From Escherichia phage AV118: a stretch of 64,000 bases of DNA. The notes under the pieces are model-generated. The model did not search any database. It was not told where the DNA came from and saw nothing but the letters and a program-made list of their open reading frames with translations. This document shows positions 1 through 24,343 of the stretch, one piece after another. Made by a program: the position numbers and the translations under genes. The stretch lies in sequence record OR352948.1; one strand, written 5' to 3'. The first letter of the stretch is position 1. Each line of letters starts with the position of its first letter.

Positions 1-325
1 TTGTGAACACATCATGGTTTTGGCAAAGACGAATATAATCCTGTTCATAAACGTCAAGAACCGAGTCCGCATCTTGTCGAATACGTCCGTAAACCCAGTT
101 ACTAATATATCCACGGTCTAACAGATAAATCTTAGTAGGGTCTAAATAATTCAACATCGTTTCGAAACAGCCAACTTCATTTCGAGACTTAACATCGAAA
201 CGTCCATCAACTGTTCGTTTAGGGAAATCAATCTTTACATATCTTTCACTAATTTCCATTATGTCATTAATGAAAGTTGTTTTACCAGCATTATCCGGTC
301 CATCTACTAAAATAATTTTAGCCAT
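1..325 (-). CDS. P-loop nucleoside/nucleotide kinase-like protein (N-terminal part; gene runs off window edge)
   Basis: Manual minus-strand translation from ATG 325..323: MAKIILVDGPDNAGKTT (Walker A) ... LLDRGYISNWVYG (DRY-like kinase motif); truncated at position 1. Confidence 0.5.
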   Translation of the reverse strand, partial: MAKIILVDGPDNAGKTTFINDIMEISERYVKIDFPKRTVDGRFDVKSRNEVGCFETMLNYLDPTKIYLLDRGYISNWVYGRIRQDADSVLDVYEQDYIRLCQNHDVFT

Positions 326-326
326 T

Positions 327-1226
327 TTATTCCTCGATTACGACATCTTCATATTTAGGTATATTATATGGTGAAGAAATTAAAGCATTAAAGTAGATGA
401 ACTCACCAAGACCTGGATGAAATACTTCTTCAGGATTTTCGAAATATTGAATCTTCGGACGTCCTTTAAGAATTTGATAGTACTCGGTTTTAGTTGGTTT
501 AAAAATTCGAATCAACGCTTCTTCAGGATACTTATTTCTGTCAAAGCTATTATTTGGATCTGTTATATAAAGCGGTTGACCTAATTGAATTGCGCATTCA
601 ACAACTTGTTCAAAACGATAGCATGGGTCACTAATTCGAAATGGATGAAAAATACCATCTAGATTAATAGGAGCCAAATCACCTACAAGACGCTGCATGA
701 TGGAAGGACGTATAACTTTCTGCGTTACGATAATCTTATTACCATCTGCACCTGCGTTAACCAGCACTTCTTTTTGACGTTCATTCAACACAGTTGTTTG
801 GATTGAACGATTAACCGACAATATGTCGGTTTTTAAGAATTCGTCAATATAAAAACGTGGTTTATTAGGGTCTGCGGTGATATTGAAATTGAATTCTACA
901 TCAAAAGCGCCGTCATATCCAGTGATATCTGTGATTAGAAAATCACAATCATAATAAGCAATTAATGAATCAACCACAAATTCATTTTCAGACCAGAAAT
1001 ATTTACGAGTGTTATACGCGTTATCTTTATACCATAATGGAACAAACTTAAATTCTGGAAAAAGACGTTCGCATTCTTTAATATCAGATGCATTACGTGG
1101 ATATGTAATCACATCACCCGGATTAGCACGGTGCAAATGAAGTTGGAAGTTGCCATCCTTAAGGATAGCATACTGTCCAGTTTCATAAGACCGCATACTC
1201 AAGATAGGTACGCGGAAAATAGCCAT
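327..1226 (-). CDS. hypothetical protein at the T4 beta-glucosyltransferase position (candidate DNA-sugar transferase, unproven)
   Basis: 299-aa ORF, ATG start overlapping gp42 stop (TAATG); no motif I can assign with confidence; possible DxD-like DCD near residue 93. Confidence 0.5.
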   Translation of the reverse strand: MAIFRVPILSMRSYETGQYAILKDGNFQLHLHRANPGDVITYPRNASDIKECERLFPEFKFVPLWYKDNAYNTRKYFWSENEFVVDSLIAYYDCDFLITDITGYDGAFDVEFNFNITADPNKPRFYIDEFLKTDILSVNRSIQTTVLNERQKEVLVNAGADGNKIIVTQKVIRPSIMQRLVGDLAPINLDGIFHPFRISDPCYRFEQVVECAIQLGQPLYITDPNNSFDRNKYPEEALIRIFKPTKTEYYQILKGRPKIQYFENPEEVFHPGLGEFIYFNALISSPYNIPKYEDVVIEE

Positions 1227-1942
1227 TAGTCAAGGAATCCTTTAACATAATCAAAATCACGTTCAAACACATGGGCACTTACCATGGTATGAGTATAATC
1301 ACCAACTTCTACACCACATTCGTTAGCGATATAATGAAGTAATTTTCCTTGGAGATAAAAATCCAACTGCATAACAACAGCACAGTTCTGAGAACGCATA
1401 TGACAGTGGGTATAAAGCTTACCATCACGAATATAATAAGTCACTGAGTCAGTACATGGATATTCAAGCGTTTCGTCTGAATCAAGCAAAGCCTGATCAG
1501 AACTTTCTAGAATTTGGAACACAACTCTTCGGGAGTTAGGCTTCTCTTTAAGTTCTTTTAGAAGAGCTGGTAATTGAGCCGCAATGCGAGGACCATAGAA
1601 AGTGTTGAAGTTCGCCGGCAAAACATCTGATTTTGGTTTAGAAATAAATTTAGCGACATTAGGATATGCCTTAAACGCTTCTTCTGCATTGGTACCACCA
1701 GAAATCATAAACTTCCAGAAGTCTTCGGCATATTCATAAGAGATGCGGTTAATACGTGGGTCGGTCATTTTGAATGTCGATGGAGTGTCAACAACTACTG
1801 TCATAGACCCAATTTCATTACAACGTCCAATACGAGAATCAGTTACGAATTCCGGGTTTTCTAAAATTTCACGATTGACTGCTTTAAATGCGGCTTGAAA
1901 ATCTGCGGCTTTGATATATTTCATTGTGTTATGTTTTCCCAT
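1226..1942 (-). CDS. 42: dCMP hydroxymethylase
   Basis: 238-aa ORF, thymidylate-synthase-like core with PCTDS catalytic-Cys region; size and position as T4 gp42; SD GAGGTAAAC before ATG. Confidence 0.8.
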   Translation of the reverse strand: MGKHNTMKYIKAADFQAAFKAVNREILENPEFVTDSRIGRCNEIGSMTVVVDTPSTFKMTDPRINRISYEYAEDFWKFMISGGTNAEEAFKAYPNVAKFISKPKSDVLPANFNTFYGPRIAAQLPALLKELKEKPNSRRVVFQILESSDQALLDSDETLEYPCTDSVTYYIRDGKLYTHCHMRSQNCAVVMQLDFYLQGKLLHYIANECGVEVGDYTHTMVSAHVFERDFDYVKGFLD

Positions 1943-2124
1943 GTTTACCTCAATACAATTTATTATATACTCAATTTGTAAAGCTTATTTGAATTTCTTG
2001 ACAATGTTGATATAACGTAAAGCTTCAGCATCGATACTTCCAAGAACACTATGAAGAAATGCGTCAGCGTAGTATTCCAATTGAACAGGTTTCTTTAATC
2101 ACTTTAGCCGCTTTAGTTTTAAAC

Positions 2125-2145
2125 AGGCCCATCAGGGCCTTTTTA
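2125..2145. terminator. GC-rich hairpin AGGCCC-ATCA-GGGCCT followed by T5 (orientation ambiguous)
   Basis: Inverted repeat plus T-run read directly; lies between gp42 and the 391-aa gene. Confidence 0.3.
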
Positions 2146-2221
2146 AGAATTTGTTCGTTAGTGTTCAGTTTAATAGTCAAAATCTCTTCGTTAAGTTTAT
2201 AATTAAAAGTTTTTCTAGAAA

Positions 2222-3397
2222 TCATTCCGGGTACCTCAAAGCGTCATCAGAGTTAGTTATATCAATAATAGATATAGAGTTTTCTGCTAACCCGTTTTTA
2301 GATAATTGACGTTTATAATATCTTTCACAATATGTACACGTCGTCCCGCAGATTTCATTAGCACAATCGAAATCTGGATGTCTGAACCACCTTTTTTCTA
2401 AAAAGCCATCTAACAAAGAGGTTTCAATATTTACTGTATGTGAAAACTCAGTTTCGTTTTCAAGAGTGAAAATGGTCTCTAAAGGCTTCCACAGTTCTAA
2501 CAAATTACCTTCAAACTTTTCAGAAGCGTATGCTTCAAGAACTTTCAAAATGTAGTCTGTGCTACCTGTACGTCCTGAAACTTTGAATTGAGTGATACCA
2601 ATATCATTATAAAGTTTCAAATCTTGAGGACGAACAAAACGAGTTCTCAACCAGTTAAATGGGTCTGTATCACGAGCTTTAATACAGTGCTGCATAGGAT
2701 ATCCGTTTAAGGATTTAGCATCATCAGCTGTAACATCAGTACTATGGAAAATATAGCAAGAGTCACGATAGCTACAATGTGTTGTATACCCTTTACCAGC
2801 ATTAGAACAGAACTCATTTACAAGAACTTCAAATATTATATTGTTCTTATTGCAAAACTCTGCTGCACGCTTCAGGAAAGAAACTGAACGGTTCTTATGA
2901 ATTCCACAGCAGACCTTTTTGATATTATATTGGTCATGCAAGTATTTGATTTGAGTTACAGCATCGACATGTAGAATTGTTGAAACTTCAATCTCAATGT
3001 CTTTATTGACTTCACGAACAATTTCCATAACAACAGGGTTAGCGATAGTAATACGCCATACGCCTATTGACCAAAGATACTGAACATAATCCTGAATAGC
3101 TTTCTTCTTCCACTCAACTAGTTCTCTTTTTGAACCAGGATTTATCGTGTTGAGTGTATAGTTAAAGCAAATACCTAATTCGTTACAACGTTTAACGTAA
3201 TCTTCTAACATCTTTTTGTCAACGTCAGGAAGCCTAAAATCAGGTCTGGCTGCTACAAAAGCCATTTCTCTTGTAGAGCCGTATACTTCGTTTATCAAGC
3301 TATTAGGATAAGTTTTATTGAGCTCTACGATTTTATCAAGAAGAGCTAAATCAAAATTCGTTCCAATTTTAAAAGTATTCATTTTTTTGCATCTCAC
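2222..3397 (-). CDS. Cys-rich protein of unknown function (weak peptidase-U32-like / Fe-S enzyme resemblance)
   Basis: 391-aa ORF; Cys cluster FCSNAGKGYTTHCSYRDSC and C-terminal CANEICGTTCTYC; start may be internal Met (MNTFKIG). Confidence 0.6.
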   Translation of the reverse strand: MRCKKMNTFKIGTNFDLALLDKIVELNKTYPNSLINEVYGSTREMAFVAARPDFRLPDVDKKMLEDYVKRCNELGICFNYTLNTINPGSKRELVEWKKKAIQDYVQYLWSIGVWRITIANPVVMEIVREVNKDIEIEVSTILHVDAVTQIKYLHDQYNIKKVCCGIHKNRSVSFLKRAAEFCNKNNIIFEVLVNEFCSNAGKGYTTHCSYRDSCYIFHSTDVTADDAKSLNGYPMQHCIKARDTDPFNWLRTRFVRPQDLKLYNDIGITQFKVSGRTGSTDYILKVLEAYASEKFEGNLLELWKPLETIFTLENETEFSHTVNIETSLLDGFLEKRWFRHPDFDCANEICGTTCTYCERYYKRQLSKNGLAENSISIIDITNSDDALRYPE

Positions 3398-3438
3398 GTT
3401 AATTGATGCGATGGTTTTTGCAGGTCTTACTTAAATTA

Positions 3439-3840
3439 TTATAGATTCGGTTTATATGATTTAAATGTTTCGAATTCGCCTTTATTCATAAGAGCTTTGA
3501 ATTCGTCAGGACGCATAGCTTTGTCGTCGATAATCCAATCATATACTGGTTTATGTGTTAGCAAATTATGGTACTTCAAACCAATGTTTTCCAAGTTCTG
3601 AATCAGACTTGGGAGAATGTCAATTGCTATACGTCCAGGACCTACTGACTTCATACCGCGAGCAGTGTAAAGCGTTATGGTATGCCCTGCATCATACAGG
3701 GCATTAATGGCAGACACCATTTCGACGTCTGGTTTGAAGTTCACGTAATCACGATTGTTATTCCACTCTGTTATACAATCATCGACATCAAAACAAAGAT
3801 TAAGCATGTTTTCTACACGGTGCATTAGATTCGTTCCCAT
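3439..3840 (-). CDS. HAD-superfamily phosphatase-like protein (putative sugar-phosphate phosphatase)
   Basis: 133-aa ORF; N-terminal FDVDDCIT (DxD motif I-like), LYTARG, HKP, IIDD motifs in HAD order. Confidence 0.55.
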   Translation of the reverse strand: MGTNLMHRVENMLNLCFDVDDCITEWNNNRDYVNFKPDVEMVSAINALYDAGHTITLYTARGMKSVGPGRIAIDILPSLIQNLENIGLKYHNLLTHKPVYDWIIDDKAMRPDEFKALMNKGEFETFKSYKPNL

Positions 3841-5510
3841 TGATGAGTGATATCGCCACCGATTGGACGATAGGAAACACCAGTTTCTTTATCAGTTAGT
3901 ACCCATTTACCAGGATTTTTTGTAATCAGAGTAGCCGTTACAGGTTCTGCTACGTCATAACTAATAGAGCCGTCTTGAAGTACACGGCCCATATTACGTA
4001 ATTGCTTAGTCAGAAGTTCCATACCTTTATAATATGCGGCTACCGCTTTAAGTGGATTATTCTTGAAATAACCACCTAATGCAATCCAGATAATTGCCAC
4101 TGCCAAATGATGATACTCGTTAAACGAACTCATCTTTCCATATTTGTAAACTAATGGATTGATGTTAATAGTCACATTACAAGTTGTTTCATCAATAGTA
4201 AACTGTCCCCAGGTCGGATTAGCATTGAATTCATCATAACCTGAAACAGCATAAAGCACTTTAGCTTCATCATACAATTTTGGCCCGTAAATCTTGGTTT
4301 CGCCAAAATATCCACGAGGGTCGATAAACTTGACTTCGCCGTTATCAGTAATCATAGTATTACTGAAGTTCGGGTCACCATGAATAACAGAGTACTGTCC
4401 CTGAGAACGGTTATGATAACGAATAAGGTGTTCTAAAGCTTGTTTCAGCATTGGCTTCAGACGTCCAATCTTAGTGTAGTTCACATGTGTGATTTTACCA
4501 AATGAATCAATCAATGGTTGAATGCTTTCACAACGATCAATAACTTTCGTATAGAATTCTTTAGTGAAATCACGACGAACAGTTTCAGGACTTACAAAAT
4601 AAGTGTCTGTGCTGAATTTCAGTGCATCTAAAATTGCATCAACAATTTGTGGACGAGCAAGACTTGATTTGGATTTAATATATTCAAATGCCGGCTTACC
4701 TTTAATGCGTTCCATTTCAAAGTTATTTTCATTAACAGAAACTAACTGAGGAACTGAATCTGATTTCACTTTCAAATACCACGAAATCTCATCTTTCTGA
4801 AGAGCTCGACCCTGTTCGGTTAATGCGAATTTAGTTACAGTTTCTTCACCAATTTCAACTGCATTAAAACTACGATTAAGTTCACGAACTTCATGAGCCT
4901 TTTCAAGTTTAGGCATATCACCAAGGTCGATGATATTCATAAGCTCTGATTTATTGAATGCGCCACTGTAAAGGAATTCTACGAAATCACGTCCTTTGCA
5001 GTATTCATGAATTTCCTCATCAGTAGAACCCATATAGAATTCCCAGTCTTTGAACTGATAAATTCCTACAACATTACCACCTGTTGAACCTACGTTAGTG
5101 ATATTTTCACCGTCGAAATTATATCGACATTCGTCACCCTTAACATAGATTGCATTAACATTCCAAGACCATGAACCAAAATCGGGAATAATATCACACC
5201 AGTTAACAATTACGTTATGGCCGTCTAAATCTTTGTGTAATTTAGCAAGAGCATAAGCAGAACCATACGCTTCATCAACTGTACGAATAGTCACATTGAA
5301 CCCTTCTTGCTCACAATAAGCTCGAACAGTTTCAGCAAATTTTGAATGAACTACTACAATAATTTCATCTGCGCCAAGGTCAGAATAAATTGTATACAAA
5401 TTGCTCAGAATAGTGTCTTGTTTATAGTTAACAAGCACCTTAGGAATATGATGCGTTATTGGATACAAACGAGTTGCCAGTCCAGCACCAAGAATAACAG
5501 CTTTTTTCAT
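3825..5510 (-). CDS. bifunctional sugar-1-phosphate nucleotidyltransferase / sugar kinase (APH-like kinase domain)
   Basis: 561 aa; N-term ILGAGLATRLYPIT..PK (GxGTRLxPxT NTase signature); C-term VIHGDPNFSN...FIDPRG (Brenner kinase motif); SD GAGGA 7 nt upstream. Confidence 0.8.
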   Translation of the reverse strand: MKKAVILGAGLATRLYPITHHIPKVLVNYKQDTILSNLYTIYSDLGADEIIVVVHSKFAETVRAYCEQEGFNVTIRTVDEAYGSAYALAKLHKDLDGHNVIVNWCDIIPDFGSWSWNVNAIYVKGDECRYNFDGENITNVGSTGGNVVGIYQFKDWEFYMGSTDEEIHEYCKGRDFVEFLYSGAFNKSELMNIIDLGDMPKLEKAHEVRELNRSFNAVEIGEETVTKFALTEQGRALQKDEISWYLKVKSDSVPQLVSVNENNFEMERIKGKPAFEYIKSKSSLARPQIVDAILDALKFSTDTYFVSPETVRRDFTKEFYTKVIDRCESIQPLIDSFGKITHVNYTKIGRLKPMLKQALEHLIRYHNRSQGQYSVIHGDPNFSNTMITDNGEVKFIDPRGYFGETKIYGPKLYDEAKVLYAVSGYDEFNANPTWGQFTIDETTCNVTININPLVYKYGKMSSFNEYHHLAVAIIWIALGGYFKNNPLKAVAAYYKGMELLTKQLRNMGRVLQDGSISYDVAEPVTATLITKNPGKWVLTDKETGVSYRPIGGDITHQWERI

Positions 5511-5551
5511 GTTGAAGTCCTCATTGGTAAGTAGGAGTATTGTACACTATT

Positions 5552-5695
5552 CTAGTTAAAGCATTCATACTTTGCTTGTAGTCCAATCATAATCCATCCA
5601 ATTACAAGTGTTGGAATCATTACCGGAGCCGTTAAGCTCCAGTAGATAGTCATGACAAGCATCAATAGTAAAAGTCCTATTGTTATTGCTTTCAT
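5552..5695 (-). CDS. small hydrophobic membrane protein (47 aa)
   Basis: Manual translation MKAITIGLLLLMLVMTIYWSLTAPVMIPTLVIGWIMIGLQAKYECFN; ATGA start/stop overlap with upstream SIS gene; below ORF-track size cutoff. Confidence 0.35.
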   Translation of the reverse strand: MKAITIGLLLLMLVMTIYWSLTAPVMIPTLVIGWIMIGLQAKYECFN

Positions 5696-6327
5696 TGTTC
5701 GCCTCGTAACATGGCACCTAGTGCACCGCCTGGATGGAACTTAAGGAAATCATTAGAGGTAAATCCACGTTCAGACGAAAGGTTGATAGCAAACGTATCG
5801 ATAAGCGCTAACAACAATGTAGTGGACATTGTCGGAGCTAAAGAGTTCTCGTCAACTTCTACCGCGATACCAGTACAGAACGTATAATCAAAAAGAGCTT
5901 CGTATTCTTGTGGAATGTCAGGGTTACAATGTAACAGAATCTGTTTAACCTGAGGACGAATCATACGAAGATGTTTAGCAACACCTATCATTTCTTCAGT
6001 CTTACCAGAACGACTGATGTGAACTAATACATCATTAGGTGCAATAAATCCTGCGTCACCATGAGAATAATGCCCAGTGTTCAAGTACATACTTGGGATA
6101 CCGAGTGAAGCAAAAGTCTCGGAAGCTTTAGTTGCGATATTAGCGTTCTTACCAACACCTGTAATAATTACCCGGCTTTCATAATTACTAAGTCCAGGGC
6201 GTCGAAGAGTTTCTAGAATAGCGTTATAACGAGCAGGGTTTTGACTAATTACTTTAGCCATAGTGGCAAGAGATGAAGCTTGTTTTACGATTGCGTCAAT
6301 AGCGATAGTGATTGGTGTAGTTTTCAT
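5692..6327 (-). CDS. SIS-domain sugar-phosphate isomerase, KdsD/GutQ-like arabinose-5-phosphate isomerase
   Basis: 211 aa; ITGVGKNANIATKASETFASLGIPS, SHGD, ISRSGKT, LAPTMSTT, HPGGALG motifs match KdsD SIS domain. Confidence 0.8.
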   Translation of the reverse strand: MKTTPITIAIDAIVKQASSLATMAKVISQNPARYNAILETLRRPGLSNYESRVIITGVGKNANIATKASETFASLGIPSMYLNTGHYSHGDAGFIAPNDVLVHISRSGKTEEMIGVAKHLRMIRPQVKQILLHCNPDIPQEYEALFDYTFCTGIAVEVDENSLAPTMSTTLLLALIDTFAINLSSERGFTSNDFLKFHPGGALGAMLRGEQ

Positions 6328-6367
6328 ATTTCTCTCATTTAATTAGTTGGCCGTCCTTGGCATTATA

Positions 6368-9079
6368 TCAAAAATCAAACATATCGAACAGAGATGCTTT
6401 CTTCTCGTAATCGAGTTTAGCTGCTGATGTGAATCCTTCAAGTGGTTTAATAAATGTCTTCTCAAGGAGAACAGTGTAGTCCATCCAATGAAGTACATCG
6501 TCTTTAATTAAATCTGTGATTTCAGTACCAGAAGGCCATGCGATACATTTATCACCGAATGGGTTTCCTTCACGTAAAGGCAGAACATATACTTTTTCAC
6601 CTTCTACAACTTGCGGTGCATCGATATTACCTTTGATAGCCCGGTTATACGTCAGAATTCCACGAATATGGAACGGGCATTTAGGACCAGGGAATCCACC
6701 GACATCATATTTAGCAATGTTATTCGCAGAAGATACCGACGCGATGCTAATATAATTCAATTGACGGAATTCTTTTTCAAACTCTTTAAAATATTCTTGT
6801 AATGATTCTTCACCTTCTTGAAGCATACGACGAATACATTCTTTAAGAGCTTTCTGTACTGCTTTAGGGGTCGAAGATTTCTGAGTCTCTAGACCCATGA
6901 TTTTGAGTTTAGGCTCAGCGTAACGAGTGCCTTCCATATCCCACACGTTTAATGCATAACGTTTCTTACCAGTCCAGAATCCACCAATACCTTTAGAACC
7001 GAGCGGAGGACCAGCGATAGCTTCTCGGTCCATGAACATTAAGTGTTGTTTATTGTTCATGTATTCACACATTTCACGGAAACCTCTATCAATAGCTGGT
7101 TCCATACGTTCACGTGCAAACTTATCTAAGAAGTCTACCCAATGGTTGGTATCACGGAATTTAGATTCACCAACCTTATCGATAATTTTATCAGCAGATA
7201 CGTAAATAGAGTCTGTATCACCATAAAGAACGAAAGCTTTACCTTCTGTACCACAAACTTCATTCAGATATTCATTAACTTTACGTTCAATCCACTGTAA
7301 AGCCATTTGCCCGAATGTTGTGATTGCAGTAGCATTACGCAAATCATAATAACGGAACCAAACGTTGCCAAGTGCACCATAAAGTGAGTTGATAAGCAAT
7401 TTACGGTTAATTTGTGCAGTCATACCTGCAACTTCAGTACGTTGAGCTCTAAACAACATTTCATTAAGAGATTTAGCAGACAACTTTTTAATCTTTTCTT
7501 TAATCTCATCACTGAAGTCGAAACGATAATCAACATCTAATGGTTCGTCAATAGAAAGATTAGGATTATGCAATGCCTCTTTAATTATTTCACCATTACG
7601 TTGAGCTGCAAGCATGTAACCTTTATGTTCTTTACGTTGATTAAAGACCTTAGTGATTTCAGTTGGAACTACACCATCACGGTCTTTATAATACATCATG
7701 CCGTTAGGAGAGCAACTGTACACATCTGAAGGACGTTCAGCGATTGCGTTAATATAATCATGCAATGGAGCTACTTTAAACGTTCCTGCTATTGTTTCCG
7801 GGCTAATATTCACTTGGCGAATAATACTTGGATACAGAGATGTAAGGTCGAAACTCATTACATATTTGTATCGATTTGGAATAGGTTCCTTAACAAAAGC
7901 GCCAGGATAAGGTTGAACCGGGTGAGAACGACCTTGTGGAATCACCTTGTTTTGTTCTTTAAGGCTATTAAAAATAATAGCATCCCAAGTTTTAATTGGA
8001 CTGAACACAGATTGAATCTGAATTTTAGCATAATAACCCATGTCCAAGCTCAAGTTGATGAACTGACGCTTAGAATCAATTTGCAATACACGATACACGT
8101 CGATAATGTTATAAGAAATATATCGTTGGTGATTGCTTTCACGAAGCTTAGAAATAGGGCCGTCATATTTCAGTTTACCAACGTTCAATTCAAATTCTGA
8201 AATGTAATCCAGAGAATACGACGGTTGATTGGTAAAAGAGAATTTTTTGTAAAGGTCAATGTAATCAAGAACAGAGATACCGAACAATGTAATGATTTCA
8301 CGAGAACCATACATGTTTTCGATAACTTTAACACGAGTTTTACGATGTGGCGATAAACGTTTCGCAGTAGATTCGCCAAAAATATTCTTGATTCGGTTAT
8401 ACACATATGGAATATCAAATGACTCAACGTTCCATCCGGTTAAAATGACAGGAGTTTTCTGTTGCCAGAAATTGAGATATTCCATCAATAATTCTTTTTC
8501 ATTATCAAACGGCATATAAACAATTTTGTCGATAATTTCGGATGGAACTTCATCACCACCTTGTTCTTGAAGCTTAGCCGCAATTTCGATAGACCATTCT
8601 TCTACATTGCCGTATGGAGAATTCAAAAGGTCAAATACGTAGAACCTGTCGTCAATTGAGTCATAATGGGTGATAGCATCAATCGGATGTTTTGCTTGTG
8701 ACGGCTCAGGGAACCCGTCCGGAGATGTTACTTCGATGTCGAAGTTAGCCACACGAATTTTTGTATGGTCGTATTTGATTTCATAGTTATAAGTGTCAGA
8801 CAAATACGCCAATTTGAAATCGTCCATGCCAAGTGCTTCAAGTCCGATATCTTCCATGCGTTTAATCCATTGGGAGGCATCACGCATATTAGCGAACAAC
8901 TTACGAGTACACGGCTTACCGTAGATATCGAAATATTTCGTAGCCTGACTTTCCGGACAATGAGCAAACAGTGATGGTTTATATTCTACTTCACGAGTAC
9001 GTTCACGGCCATTAGAATCGATGTAACGTTCAAAAATTGAATCACCAATCTGTTCAACCGTTAAGTAAAATTCTTTCAT
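6368..9079 (-). CDS. 43: DNA polymerase (family B, T4/RB69-type)
   Basis: 903-aa ORF; exonuclease FDIE, polymerase motifs DLTSLYPSII, KILINSLYG, YGDTDS; SD AAGGAAA upstream. Confidence 0.97.
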   Translation of the reverse strand: MKEFYLTVEQIGDSIFERYIDSNGRERTREVEYKPSLFAHCPESQATKYFDIYGKPCTRKLFANMRDASQWIKRMEDIGLEALGMDDFKLAYLSDTYNYEIKYDHTKIRVANFDIEVTSPDGFPEPSQAKHPIDAITHYDSIDDRFYVFDLLNSPYGNVEEWSIEIAAKLQEQGGDEVPSEIIDKIVYMPFDNEKELLMEYLNFWQQKTPVILTGWNVESFDIPYVYNRIKNIFGESTAKRLSPHRKTRVKVIENMYGSREIITLFGISVLDYIDLYKKFSFTNQPSYSLDYISEFELNVGKLKYDGPISKLRESNHQRYISYNIIDVYRVLQIDSKRQFINLSLDMGYYAKIQIQSVFSPIKTWDAIIFNSLKEQNKVIPQGRSHPVQPYPGAFVKEPIPNRYKYVMSFDLTSLYPSIIRQVNISPETIAGTFKVAPLHDYINAIAERPSDVYSCSPNGMMYYKDRDGVVPTEITKVFNQRKEHKGYMLAAQRNGEIIKEALHNPNLSIDEPLDVDYRFDFSDEIKEKIKKLSAKSLNEMLFRAQRTEVAGMTAQINRKLLINSLYGALGNVWFRYYDLRNATAITTFGQMALQWIERKVNEYLNEVCGTEGKAFVLYGDTDSIYVSADKIIDKVGESKFRDTNHWVDFLDKFARERMEPAIDRGFREMCEYMNNKQHLMFMDREAIAGPPLGSKGIGGFWTGKKRYALNVWDMEGTRYAEPKLKIMGLETQKSSTPKAVQKALKECIRRMLQEGEESLQEYFKEFEKEFRQLNYISIASVSSANNIAKYDVGGFPGPKCPFHIRGILTYNRAIKGNIDAPQVVEGEKVYVLPLREGNPFGDKCIAWPSGTEITDLIKDDVLHWMDYTVLLEKTFIKPLEGFTSAAKLDYEKKASLFDMFDF

Positions 9080-21246: not shown

Positions 21247-21717
21247 TTAATCATGTTTCCACACCCCATCGGTATTTGACCAAAGTCGCTGATTATCTGA
21301 TCCTCGCCACAGCTTTTTAGTCGGAAGATTTTTCTCATACTTCCCATCAATAATAACATCAACATATTTAAGCATTTCTAGTTGTTTAATATCTTCAAAA
21401 TTATATCCTGTCCACAACCAAATGCTTTTATTGGGATAAAGATTTTTAATAGTTTGAACCACAGAGTGAATCACATCTCTGTTATCAGGATAGAGAGGGT
21501 CACCTCCGGTTATAGTCAATCCTTCTATATAATCATTATTCAAACATTCAATTAATTGTTCTAGTGTTTCACCAGTGAATGGAATACCATTTCTAGCATT
21601 CCATGTTGATTTATTATAACACCCTTCGCATTTATGCAAACAACCCGTAACGAAAAGAACGACCCTGCAACCAGGGCCATTCACAAAATCGCAAGGATAA
21701 AATCTATCATAATTCAT
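21247..21717 (-). CDS. nrdG: anaerobic ribonucleotide reductase activating protein (radical SAM)
   Basis: 156 aa; CLHKCEGC (Cx3Cx2C) motif; ATGA coupling with nrdD. Confidence 0.9.
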   Translation of the reverse strand: MNYDRFYPCDFVNGPGCRVVLFVTGCLHKCEGCYNKSTWNARNGIPFTGETLEQLIECLNNDYIEGLTITGGDPLYPDNRDVIHSVVQTIKNLYPNKSIWLWTGYNFEDIKQLEMLKYVDVIIDGKYEKNLPTKKLWRGSDNQRLWSNTDGVWKHD

Positions 21718-23531
21718 TGGTGTTTAACCCTATGCATGATTTCTTTATTTTTACCGAGATTAAATCCGCGTTCGTTCGGATTTCCCAAATAACCGCATGT
21801 TCTTCTTATGGTGTTCATCTTTTTAGGATCAGTTTCTCCACAGATAGAACAAACAAATCCGTTTTCAGTAGGAGTCATTTCATGGGTACTTCCACATGTA
21901 AAACATTTATCTACTGGCATATTAACACCAAAATAATCTAAATGTTGTGCAGCATAATCCCACACGGCCTCAAGTCCTTTTAAGTTATTTTTCATATCAG
22001 GAAGTTCAACATAAGAAATGTGACCACCTGTCGCAATGAAATGATATGGCGCTTCACGAGAAATCTTTTCAAACGGAGTAATATTTTCTTCTACTGAAAC
22101 GTGGAAACTGTTAGTGTACCAGCCTTTATCGGTAACATCTTTTACACTTCCATATTTTTCTGTATCGAGTTTACAGAAGCGATAACAAAGGTTTTCAGCA
22201 GGAGTCGAATATAAACTAAAAGCAAATCCAGTTCTTTCGGTCCACTGCTTAAGATGAGCATTCATTTTAGTTAAAATTTCTTGCCCAATATCACGACCGA
22301 CAAGAATATTCAATTCGTGAATACCAATGTATCCTAAAGACACTGAACTTCTACCGTTTTTAAATAACTCAATTATGTCGTCATCAGGTTTAAGACGAAC
22401 CCCGAATGCACCTTCTTGGTAAAGAATAGGAGCTACAGTTGCTTTAACACCCTTTAAAGAACTAATTCTACACATCAAGGCTTCAAAACACAGATCCATT
22501 CGTTCATTGAATAATTCAACAAATTTCTGTTCATTGAACTGTGTTCCAATATAAGAATCTAATGCGATACGAGGAAGATTCAGTGTTACAACGCCGAGAT
22601 TATTACGACCGTCAAGAATTTCATTTCCAGTTGAATCTTTCCATACGCTCAAGAAACTACGGCAACCCATCGGAGAAACTGGAACTGAAGAACCGGTAAT
22701 AGCTTTATTATTCTTAACTGAAATAATGTCAGGATACATTCTTTTGCTTGCACATTCTAACGCAAGTTGTTTAATATCATAGTTTGGATCATCTTTATAA
22801 AGATTAACACCTTCTTCAAAAAACATAACAAGCTTAGGGAAAATAGGAGTTATTCCATCACGTCCAAGGCCTTTAATGCGGTTTTTAAGAATTGCCTTCT
22901 GAATCATTCGTTCAGTCCAGTCAGTTCCTGTACCAAATGTAATTGTTACAAAAGGTGTTTGTCCGTTTGAACTAAAGAGAGTATTTACTTCATATTCATA
23001 AGCTTGGAATGCATCGTATACATCTTTTTCTGTTTTAGATTGAGCATAATTCAACGCATCAGCGATTTGCCATTTTTCTGCATCCTCAATATGTTTTGCA
23101 TAGGTGCGTTTAACATAAGGAGAAAGTACTTTATCTACATTAGCAAAAGTCGTTCCGCCGTATTGATGGGAAGCAACCTGTGCAGTAATTTGTGCCATAA
23201 TTGCAGTAGCAACACCGATTGATTTAGGAGTTTCAATCTGTGCATTACCAAGCTTAAATCCATTCTCAAGCATTCCTTTTAAATCTACTAAACAGCAATT
23301 AGTAAAAGGCAATGATATACTGTAATCTAAATCGTGAAAATGAATTAATCCGACATTATGAGCATTTACAATATGGCTCGGAAGAATACTACAAGCGATA
23401 TGTTTAGAAACAATACCGGCCATTAAATCTCTTTTTGTTGGAAAGACACGAGAATCTTTGTTGGCATTTTCGGTATTTAATTCTTTATCTTTATTTGAAA
23501 TAAAATTTAAAACATCTTTCTCTAAAGACAT
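21714..23531 (-). CDS. nrdD: anaerobic ribonucleoside-triphosphate reductase (class III)
   Basis: 605 aa; C-terminal glycyl-radical motif RRTCGYLG; uninterrupted ORF. Confidence 0.95.
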   Translation of the reverse strand: MSLEKDVLNFISNKDKELNTENANKDSRVFPTKRDLMAGIVSKHIACSILPSHIVNAHNVGLIHFHDLDYSISLPFTNCCLVDLKGMLENGFKLGNAQIETPKSIGVATAIMAQITAQVASHQYGGTTFANVDKVLSPYVKRTYAKHIEDAEKWQIADALNYAQSKTEKDVYDAFQAYEYEVNTLFSSNGQTPFVTITFGTGTDWTERMIQKAILKNRIKGLGRDGITPIFPKLVMFFEEGVNLYKDDPNYDIKQLALECASKRMYPDIISVKNNKAITGSSVPVSPMGCRSFLSVWKDSTGNEILDGRNNLGVVTLNLPRIALDSYIGTQFNEQKFVELFNERMDLCFEALMCRISSLKGVKATVAPILYQEGAFGVRLKPDDDIIELFKNGRSSVSLGYIGIHELNILVGRDIGQEILTKMNAHLKQWTERTGFAFSLYSTPAENLCYRFCKLDTEKYGSVKDVTDKGWYTNSFHVSVEENITPFEKISREAPYHFIATGGHISYVELPDMKNNLKGLEAVWDYAAQHLDYFGVNMPVDKCFTCGSTHEMTPTENGFVCSICGETDPKKMNTIRRTCGYLGNPNERGFNLGKNKEIMHRVKHQ

Positions 23532-24343
23532 AATTCTAATTTATCCTTTTGAAATTCTTCGTCTAAATATGGGTTCCAACCCATTTTAAACCTTTTGATG
23601 AAATTATCAATTCTAAATTTCGGTAAATTTAACTCCGCAAAAATAGATGATTTACTTTTAAAATCTGGACCTAAATAATCATATAAAATTTCTGCGTATT
23701 TTAACCATAATATATAAGTACCAGATTTAATTGCTCTAGGAGTTTTCCAAGGTTTTACGCCGTACATCGGATTTCCACTTCCTTTATGCCTGATAGAAGA
23801 TGAAATTCCAATTTTAATTTTAGCTTCCTTTGTGTGCGAAAATCCATGATGTGGATTTTCTTTCCAGTATTTTTTAGAAGCTTCTGATATTTTCTTTCTG
23901 GCTAAATTAGTATGATGCTTTCCATAAAATCCATGATTTTTACCTTTATTACGATTTCTTTTAATCATGGTTATTGATTGCTTTTCTCTAGTTTCTTTAG
24001 AAGGAGAAACACCGTACGTTGTAAATTGACCATTAGCATATGCTAAATTAAAATACTCTTTATTCCATATATCTTTTTCTATATTCTTTTGAAATTCAGC
24101 TTCAATGCTAGTTATTTGTTCATCTCCGACTAATTGAAAATATAATATTTCAACTTTCGGTGTTTCTTTCAACAGAGCTTTTTGAAATTCGGAAGATGAC
24201 GAAGACGAATAATAAAATTTACCATTTTTATCAATAATATTCGTTCCGTCAAAAGTGCAATTGGTTTTACTTCCAATATAATAATATGGCGGGGTTTTAG
24301 CATTAATTCTACTAATAAATGATAGTTTATATACTACATTCAT
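23522..24343 (-). mobile_element. GIY-YIG homing endonuclease gene (Seg-like), free-standing between gene 49 and nrdD
   Basis: 273 aa; VYKLSF..YYYIGSK; NUMOD3-like GKNHGFYG, GSGNPMYG; paralog of 11818 and 16570 ORFs. Confidence 0.65.

Follow-up and report, generated by a model that had tools for sequence, protein, structure and literature searches.

In Escherichia coli, the U32-family proteins UbiU and UbiV (UbiUV) hydroxylate with prephenate as the oxygen donor, and two further members of the family, TrhP and RlhA, require the same metabolite to form 5-hydroxyuridine (ho5U) in tRNA and 5-hydroxycytidine (ho5C) in rRNA. PheA's chorismate mutase (CM) domain alone is sufficient to restore the function of UbiUV, TrhP, and RlhA. 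DNA hypermodification based on 5-hydroxycytosine (5hoC) was described only in 2025-2026. RB69 DNA carries beta-D-Araf-(1->3)-alpha-D-Araf (Araf, arabinofuranose) ether-linked to 5hoC, and not to hydroxymethylcytosine (hmC), as determined by nuclear magnetic resonance (NMR; Lee et al., NAR 2026, PMC13326640). The sole known hydroxylase for this base is a thymidylate synthase (TS) homolog that requires O2; in RB69 it is gp48, a flavin-bound protein that produces 5-hydroxy-dCMP (5hodCMP) with incorporation of 18O from O2 (PMC13326640). Here we analyze a U32-family gene, the counterpart of RB69 gp50 (RB69p050), in a 64,000-nucleotide stretch of Escherichia phage AV118 (sequence record OR352948.1), the whole of which is referred to as the window. 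The window is that of a Mosigvirus (an RB69-like T4-type coliphage), and over positions 1-6400 it shares 98-99% identity with many phages of Escherichia and Shigella. Our findings favor, with a probability of roughly 60%, the view that the U32 protein provides an O2-independent, prephenate-dependent route to 5-hydroxydeoxycytidine.

In the proposed reaction, the U32 enzyme would hydroxylate C5 of (deoxy)cytosine with oxygen from prephenate, yielding the base for the arabinosyltransferases. A [4Fe-4S] cluster would be held by C208, C214, C238, and one more Cys. As in the scheme proposed for UbiUV, the pyrimidine ring would be oxidized by two electrons and the cation quenched by hydroxide from prephenate decarboxylation, giving the 5-hydroxy base, phenylpyruvate, and CO2. 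Because of the nucleotide-metabolism genes in the neighborhood, dCMP is the likeliest substrate, with dCTP and cytosine in DNA as further candidates. Phage kinases would next phosphorylate the product, probably 5hodCMP, for its incorporation into DNA and subsequent arabinosylation. A second Cys motif at the C terminus may hold another cluster or zinc, perhaps for electron transfer. In RB69-like phages, the U32 enzyme would do under anaerobic conditions what the neighboring TS-like synthase does with flavin and O2. The chemistry fits, since RlhA makes 5-hydroxycytidine and the phage base is 5-hydroxycytosine, which supports assignment as a C5 hydroxylase.

Two observations are new in the present analysis: genes for prephenate supply are associated with U32, and there are U32 clusters that have no TS-type enzyme. 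The first is exemplified by the Enterobacter phage Entb_45, in which the U32 stop codon lies in a 4-nt overlap with a 79-aa gene that matches Pfam CM_2 with 40.9 bits (gathering score 27). A CM_2 gene adjoins U32 in six loci, those of Entb_45, Klebsiella, Yersinia TG1, Proteus, Thanatos-2, and PM2-type phages, and in four of these six T4-like loci it overlaps the U32 stop codon. Five of the six were scanned with Pfam (33-47 bits against the same gathering score of 27), with CM_2 confirmed in Yersinia TG1, Proteus Pm5461, Shewanella Thanatos-2, and one Klebsiella phage in addition to Entb_45; the PM2 copy was recovered by tblastn and our own profile. The CM gene was detected in 51 phage records, every time at the U32 locus. 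In Thanatos-2 the cluster has been rearranged, yet U32 and CM are still adjacent and overlapping. The phage CMs share invariant R8, R25, K36, S71, and Q75, a spacing that we take to be that of Arg11, Arg28, Lys39, Ser84, and Gln88 in E. coli CM (EcCM). T4-like phages that infect at least 12 host genera encode short monofunctional CMs (79-128 aa) beside U32; these proteins are called hypothetical in PHROGs (phrog_10027) and in most GenBank records.

Prephenate-supply genes also stand beside U32 in distant, uncultured phages. A CM is encoded there in loci L051, L056 and relatives, L066, L070, and L071, with Pfam confirming L051 and L056 and our own CM profile the other three. CM_2 genes adjacent to U32 occur in jumbo phages as well as in the T4-like genera. 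3-Deoxy-D-arabino-heptulosonate 7-phosphate (DAHP) synthase (DAHPS) is a neighbor in L007 and L033, and a DAHPS-CM fusion in L045, L048, L050, and probably L069. From these arrangements we infer that the CM and DAHPS neighbors supply prephenate to a U32 hydroxylase. We considered whether the DAHP_synth_1 neighbor in L007 might instead be a 3-deoxy-D-manno-octulosonate 8-phosphate synthase (KDO8PS) using arabinose 5-phosphate and rejected this, as the protein scores 237 bits as DAHP synthase versus 63 bits as KDO8PS.

The second observation comes from 32 dereplicated distant clusters, whose loci extend at most 10 kb to either side of U32, several being shorter. All U32 homologs at 40-58% identity lie on uncultured viral contigs or on contigs of metagenome-assembled genomes (MAGs). 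The window glycosyltransferase (GT) has a homolog (BLASTP E 6e-9 to 3e-17) in the ~300-aa unannotated gene next to U32 in L007-L010, and such a GT homolog is found near U32 in 23 of the 32 clusters. A Tmk-like kinase is present in 22, the sugar kinase/nucleotidyltransferase (NTK) in 13, arabinose-5-phosphate (A5P) isomerase in 10, CM and/or DAHPS in 9, a MazG-type NTP pyrophosphatase in 8, and dCMP deaminase in 6. None of the 32 has a TS-type hydroxylase within +-10 kb of U32. A Pfam census of 150 neighbors of distant U32 genes gave the same picture, Thymidylat_synt not being among the frequent families. A pyrophosphatase, a base-modifying enzyme, a dNMP kinase, and a DNA glycosyltransferase together are the classic toolkit for complete pre-replicative base replacement, and in the distant clusters U32 occupies the slot held by the TS homolog in T-even phages. 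In many uncultured phages of anaerobe-associated bins, U32 seems to be the sole hydroxylase. Ten of the distant clusters have a GT homolog near U32 and no SIS or NTK arabinose genes, most of them also with Tmk-like and MazG-type genes; this links U32 with base and transferase rather than with the synthesis of the sugar. That phages carry a self-contained module for O2-independent DNA-base hydroxylation, in which U32 acts on dCMP (or a related deoxypyrimidine nucleotide) with prephenate and often with a phage CM or DAHPS, is a more tentative proposal, to which we would give slightly less than even odds.

Some distant loci have features of their own. On a 230-kb viral contig, L035, a canonical ThyA (Pfam 244 bits) is encoded directly upstream of a module of GT, Tmk, NTK, and U32; no other distant locus has a TS-family gene in its vicinity. 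An island in L002, found also in L003 and L067 and belonging to a Bacillota MAG, encodes two divergent U32 paralogs, the second of which has the C-terminal Cys motif and only part of the central one. The L002 island also encodes a radical-SAM/SPASM protein, 5'-deoxyribonucleotidase, deoxynucleoside kinase, nucleoside deoxyribosyltransferase, and an NMN-type transporter, and it may represent a nucleoside-level salvage or modification route. Radical-SAM/SPASM genes lie near U32 in three of the 32 distant clusters (L001, L009, and L002). They were discarded as a functional clue given this low count and their generic, MoaA- or maturase-like matches.

The window protein is assigned to the U32 family by domain and by fold. 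It matches Pfam Peptidase_U32 (PF01136) over residues 99-291 with 42.2 bits (gathering score 22.4), and PF01136 is present in nearly all of its listed homologs. The AlphaFold2 (AF2) model (pLDDT 93) is a (beta/alpha)8-barrel (TIM barrel) resembling a solved U32 structure. PDB sequence searches with the single protein and with a 116-sequence profile returned no meaningful relative, the sole match being a chance one to BIM1. PF01136 was the only domain detected, with no DUF3656 or other extra C-terminal domain of RlhA or TrhP.

An earlier, sequence-only reading of the window had described a Cys-rich 391-aa enzyme inside a sugar cluster, with central FCSNAG...HCSYRDSC and C-terminal CxxxCxxxCxxC motifs, and had suggested a metal or Fe-S site and a likeness to U32-family hydroxylases. 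Most of this description was borne out. The protein has 14 Cys in 391 residues. Across 116 homologs, with identities as low as ~46%, C163, C197, C208, C214, C238, C345, C350, C354, and C357 do not vary; C182 is likewise constant among 23 sequences taken as a smaller set and reaches at least 90% conservation in the full one. The gene order of the window places the gene within the sugar cluster. The central motifs read F-C197-SNAG and H-C208-SYRDS-C214, and the C-terminal motif is real, with its first spacing off by one (C345-x4-C350-x3-C354-x2-C357). The PF01136 score supports the U32 likeness, and C208, C214, and C238 align with C169, C176, and C193 of UbiU, three of its four [4Fe-4S] ligands; the clustered Cys residues probably mark an Fe-S site. 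In MAFFT and hhalign alignments, the phage segment HCSYRDSCYIFH falls on RlhA LCVAYSGQCYISH. This brings E195, C208, and C214, all invariant in the 116 sequences, into register with E161, C169, and C176 of RlhA and E162, C170, and C177 of TrhP, which are essential for the formation of ho5C2501 and ho5U34, respectively. The Glu and two Cys of the U32-hydroxylase motif (E-x-F...C-x6-C) are thus in place, with a Cx5C rather than Cx6C spacing in the phage protein.

The family hidden Markov model (HMM) scored the E. coli paralogs TrhP, RlhA, UbiU, and UbiV at 15.1, 9.4, 6.1, and -1.4 bits, respectively, and hhalign of the phage family against the single E. coli sequences was weak except for RlhA (probability 79%). 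Having PF01136 alone and scoring 9.4 bits, the phage protein lies outside the RlhA subfamily, which combines U32 with DUF3656 and clusters with RlhA1; it would be RlhA-like in action at most. It also lies outside the TrhP, UbiU, and UbiV equivalogs (NCBIfam UbiU 18.4 bits against a cutoff of 440). Remote from all four E. coli paralogs, the phage family forms a separate, deep U32 subfamily.

We next considered how the gene is distributed with respect to oxygen. U32 was found in 221 phage records, all of phages of Enterobacterales or Shewanella, which are facultative anaerobes. None of the 221 is an Acinetobacter phage, though 57 Acinetobacter records carry the kinase/nucleotidyltransferase, and phages of this aerobe that make the same modification do so without U32. 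JS98 (E. coli), Maestro (Acinetobacter), and DLP3 have the full cluster with neither U32 nor CM. Among the T4-like phages with arabinosylated 5hoC (ara-5hoC), U32 is present in only a subset and the TS homolog in all. DLP3 and Maestro have been reported to contain arabinosylated 5-hydroxydeoxycytidine (PMC13326640); by this comparison, clusters without U32 still give the modification, and the gene is predicted to be accessory or conditional. It adds nothing visible to the aerobically made product, because the RB69 nucleoside carries the first two sugars of the DLP3 product (PMC13326640) and DLP3 has no U32. The nrdD and nrdG genes of the window are contextual evidence for DNA replication by the phage inside anoxic hosts. 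Phages of facultative anaerobes commonly encode NrdD, with Acinetobacter outside the top ten names. Among 185,579 species genomes, the U32 subfamily was detected in seven, all of them MAGs of anaerobic lineages. Where present, the phage gene is intact, with at least 80% coverage in all 221 records and at least 99% protein identity in 152 of them, which indicates purifying selection.

The U32 ORF of the window is read as 391 aa from a GTG start, and its product, which matches PHROG 5757, is 99.5% identical to the RB69 copy. The true start is probably the ATG at 3382, which would give 386 aa, because the homologs and PHROG 5757 all start at residue 6 (MNTFKIG); a weak GAG lies upstream of this ATG. 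A promoter and terminator scan of window positions 1..6500 detected nothing exceeding shuffled expectation. On the minus strand, the genes run in the order polymerase, isomerase, kinase/nucleotidyltransferase, phosphatase, U32, p049, TS homolog, and glycosyltransferase (Table 1). Order and products match RB69 gp46-gp55, as expected for an ara-5hoC cluster of the RB69 gp45-gp55 type. The TS homolog, encoded ~280 bp downstream of U32, carries D169N and N177D (visible in MRSQNCAVVMQLD), which are diagnostic for 5-hydroxy-dCMP synthases (PMC13326640). Many GenBank records label the TS homolog as dCMP hydroxymethylase or thymidylate synthase; because of this signature, such labels, and the notion of hmC in such phages, are outdated.

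The small ORF between U32 and the TS homolog belongs to the p049 family, a 79-aa ORF in RB69 whose ATG overlaps the U32 stop codon and whose conserved motif is YY.DAF.HS..G.I..E..R.IN. In the window it is split by an additional A near 2095 ('attaaagAaacc' versus RB69 'attaaag-aacc', by DNA and protein comparison), the first 53 aa running from 2225 to 2064 and the remainder lying in another frame to about 1986. Two-piece matches are also seen in a few other Mosigviruses (JS09 and 172859UKE1), and the split may reflect either a sequencing error where A is abundant or a genuine pseudogene. RB69p049 was considered as a degenerate CM and rejected on the grounds of an hhalign probability of 0.3%, a different conserved motif, and the presence of both genes in Yersinia phage TG1. 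Elsewhere on the minus strand (21247-24343), next after nrdG and nrdD come a 273-aa ORF that carries the homing-endonuclease-like NUMOD3 motif and, beyond it, endonuclease VII.

Table 1. Features of the window and of distant or related U32 loci (locus handle before the colon), with their assignments.
Feature	Position	Strand	Basis or remark
DNA polymerase, family B, 903 aa	6368..9079	-	First in the minus-strand cluster order
A5P isomerase (SIS domain; RB69 gp55 counterpart)	5692..6327	-	Pfam, PHROG, NCBIfam
Bifunctional sugar kinase/nucleotidyltransferase (RB69 gp52:53 / AfhE-like)	3825..5510	-	
HAD phosphatase (RB69 gp51 / AfhF-like)	3439..3840	-	NDP-arabinose supply
U32-family protein, probably Fe-S, proposed prephenate-dependent O2-independent cytosine C5 hydroxylase	2222..3397	-	Pfam, PHROG 5757, AF2, motif
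p049-like small ORF	1986..2225	-	PHROG 8601; start overlaps U32 stop codon (ATGA)
TS homolog, putative flavin- and O2-dependent 5-hydroxy-dCMP synthase (RB69 gp48 counterpart)	1226..1942	-	Pfam Thymidylat_synt 56.9 bits
Glycosyltransferase, putative first arabinosyltransferase on 5hoC in DNA (RB69 gp46:47 counterpart)	327..1226	-	PHROG 3891; assignment of RB69 gp46:47 from Table 1 of PMC13326640
nrdG	21247..21717	-	Pfam Fer4_12 and Radical_SAM
nrdD	21714..23531	-	Pfam NRDD 567.6 bits and Gly_radical
Short CM gene beside U32	L011:6158-6397		
Short CM gene beside U32	L015:5378-5671		
Short CM gene beside U32	L016:5399-5785		
Short CM gene beside U32	L017:5134-5391		
Short CM gene beside U32	L018:5158-5403		
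Canonical ThyA	L035:5509-6360		
Island with two U32 paralogs	L002:10001-17428		
Radical-SAM/SPASM	L001:1314-2249		
Radical-SAM/SPASM	L009:7972-9000		
Radical-SAM/SPASM	L002:14160-15185		

Several findings weigh against a prephenate-dependent hydroxylase of deoxycytosine. The canonical U32 ligand set is CX6CX15CX3/4C, or the UbiU/UbiV variants of it, and the fourth ligand (the CxxxC partner) is absent from the phage protein; C197, C163, or C182 might replace it, which is a guess for which the relocated ligands of UbiU (C232) and UbiV (C39) are a precedent. The distance from RlhA, TrhP, and UbiU/V is great (6-15 bits), and no U32 protein has yet been shown to hydroxylate in vitro. Mosigviruses, the window included, and some Klebsiella phages have no CM gene; since the window genus is without one, it would depend on PheA/TyrA of the host for prephenate. 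In about 40 E. coli phages of the JS98/Dhakavirus group, the cluster for arabinose and 5hoC is present but U32, CM, and p049 are all missing, so that a coliphage of the gut can do without the gene. The correlation with host oxygen is one-directional and rests on raw counts with no phylogenetic correction. The absence of TS-type enzymes from the distant clusters covers +-10 kb only, and our own TS profile is weak (canonical ThyA scores 19 bits), although the absence is backed by Pfam on the 150 neighbors and by pre-computed Pfam annotations. No link between U32, phages, and prephenate was found in the literature searched; He et al. 2026 and Mahler et al. 2025, which lay outside that search, might hold contrary or prior data. 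The Discussion of PMC13326640 covers RlhA and the tRNA hydroxylation pathways without tying them to gp50.

Published labels point to the sugar rather than the base. The only entry for gp50 in PMC13326640, in its Table 1, reads 'Sugar or heterocycle reductase', and PMC13390438 names an 'epimerase' among the cluster genes, both from structural similarity alone. A reductase or epimerase tailoring the arabinose donor or the attached sugar would agree with the TIM-barrel fold and with the location of U32, which has the sugar-activation genes on one side and those for TS and GT on the other. However, the route from ribulose 5-phosphate to NDP-Araf is already covered by isomerase, kinase/nucleotidyltransferase, and phosphatase (work on HY126 AfhE/AfhF, as recounted in PMC13326640), the RB69 product contains only D-Araf on 5hoC, ten distant clusters combine U32 and GT without SIS/NTK sugar genes, no U32 member is known to act on sugars, and the association with CM/DAHPS would be left without a role. 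We therefore regard sugar tailoring as quite improbable. The same evidence speaks against two suggestions of the sequence-only reading, namely that the protein is the transferase or a sugar epimerase, given a complete arabinose-nucleotide route and the clusters of JS98, Maestro, and DLP3, and that it makes the final modification more complex than simple arabinosylation, given that the product of DLP3 begins with the same two sugars seen in RB69 by NMR. The premise of arabinosylated hmC is outdated, the base being 5hoC and the TS homolog bearing D169N/N177D. The sequence-only reading came nearest with an oxidoreductase that tailors the base, in that our evidence favors a hydroxylase by which the acceptor base itself is made.

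Hydroxylation itself could be directed elsewhere. A TrhP- or RlhA-like enzyme might form ho5U in phage or host tRNA or ho5C in rRNA and tune translation during infection; it would explain the prephenate link too, the characterized pyrimidine-hydroxylating U32 enzymes do use RNA, and the phage family is marginally nearer to TrhP and RlhA than to UbiU and UbiV. This is nonetheless a long shot, as the gene is embedded in, or overlaps, DNA-modification and dNTP-metabolism genes in T4-like and unrelated phages alike, co-varies with the 5hoC glycosyltransferase and not with tRNA genes, encodes PF01136 with no DUF3656 or extra C-terminal domain, and would duplicate the TrhP, TrhO, and RlhA of the host. 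Less improbable, though still unlikely, is that the same class of enzyme serves another step or substrate in T4-like phages, such as dUMP/dU, cytosine in DNA (to repair sites left under-modified or serve as their back-up), or assistance to the TS hydroxylase, for example by electron transfer. Genes for dCMP deaminase, dUTPase, and uracil-DNA glycosylase adjoin U32 in several distant loci, and RlhA and TrhP act on polymers. Against this, cytosine derivatives are the only non-canonical bases in RB69 and DLP3 DNA (PMC13326640), and a helper-only role would leave unexplained the loci that have a GT and no TS-type enzyme, as well as the CM/DAHPS genes. That the protein is a genuine peptidase or collagenase, as the family name and most database records ('peptidase' or 'collagenase-like protease') would have it, is highly improbable: every U32 member with a genetically worked-out function is involved in hydroxylation, the invariant Cys and Glu residues fit the Fe-S/hydroxylase motif, and the gene context is unrelated to proteolysis. 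The labels 'peptidase', 'collagenase', and 'sugar reductase' are probably wrong.

If the U32 enzyme does make 5-hydroxydeoxycytidine with prephenate, it would be the first U32 hydroxylase to act on DNA precursors and a new variant of these enzymes, with a new substrate class and phage-encoded cofactor supply. Phage chorismate mutase and DAHP synthase genes would gain a concrete role, and auxiliary genes of the shikimate pathway would receive their first explanation as providers of a cofactor for DNA hypermodification. The enzyme would explain how cytosine can be fully replaced in anoxic hosts by phages that infect gut and sediment bacteria and carry anaerobic ribonucleotide reductase. If the module proposed above is real, a large group of uncultured phages that infect anaerobes would have no other route to glycosylated 5-hydroxypyrimidine DNA. 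As a soluble single-chain enzyme with a likely mononucleotide substrate, it would be far easier to reconstitute than UbiUVT or the ribosome- or tRNA-bound RlhA and TrhP, and it could give the first in vitro reconstitution of a U32 hydroxylase. U32 together with the glycosyltransferase could also mark likely hydroxypyrimidine-glycosylated DNA in uncultured phages of anaerobes, which is relevant to restriction and CRISPR evasion, sequencing artefacts, and phage therapy.

Among known systems, the Methanopyrus kandleri U32 'peptidase' Mk0906 (PDB 5d88) shares only 14% identity with the phage protein and gives no sequence-level match. RB69 gp48, DLP3 gp80, and their HY126 homolog share with it the proposed product, 5hodCMP, and the gene cluster, and differ in fold, cofactor, and oxygen source. 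The chemistry proposed here, hydroxylation of cytosine at C5, is that of RlhA (YdcP), the E. coli 23S rRNA 5-hydroxycytidine C2501 synthase, which depends on prephenate and on Fe-S cluster biogenesis and has a functionally important C-terminal Cys cluster of which the phage Cx4Cx3Cx2C is reminiscent. RlhA, however, has 653 aa with DUF3656 and acts on a ribosome precursor, whereas the phage protein has 386 aa, consists of the U32 core only, and is proposed to act on a deoxynucleotide or DNA. The two also differ in Cys spacing (Cx6C versus Cx5C) and in the CxxxC fourth ligand, absent in the phage, and their similarity is marginal (hhalign 79%, HMM 9 bits).

In tRNA, TrhO and TrhP (YegQ) form ho5U34 by the logic proposed here, an O2-dependent enzyme and a prephenate-dependent U32 enzyme making one 5-hydroxypyrimidine for aerobic and anaerobic life, and E162, C170, and C177 of TrhP are conserved in the phage family. 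TrhO is a rhodanese, whereas the aerobic partner in the phage is a flavin-dependent TS homolog adjacent in the operon, and the proposed substrate is destined for DNA, not tRNA. UbiU and UbiV, O2-independent ubiquinone hydroxylases with one [4Fe-4S] cluster each, form a heterodimer that, aided by UbiT, acts on a lipid; the phage enzyme has only one chain, in which the C-terminal four-Cys motif might, by analogy, stand in for the second UbiU-UbiV cluster. Three of the four UbiU Cys ligands have counterparts in C208, C214, and C238, and the support of UbiUV by the CM domain of PheA finds its parallel in the monofunctional CM encoded by phages. The cellular pairing of aerobic UbiI/H/F with anaerobic UbiU/V would be mirrored by the proposed phage pair of TS homolog and U32 enzyme.

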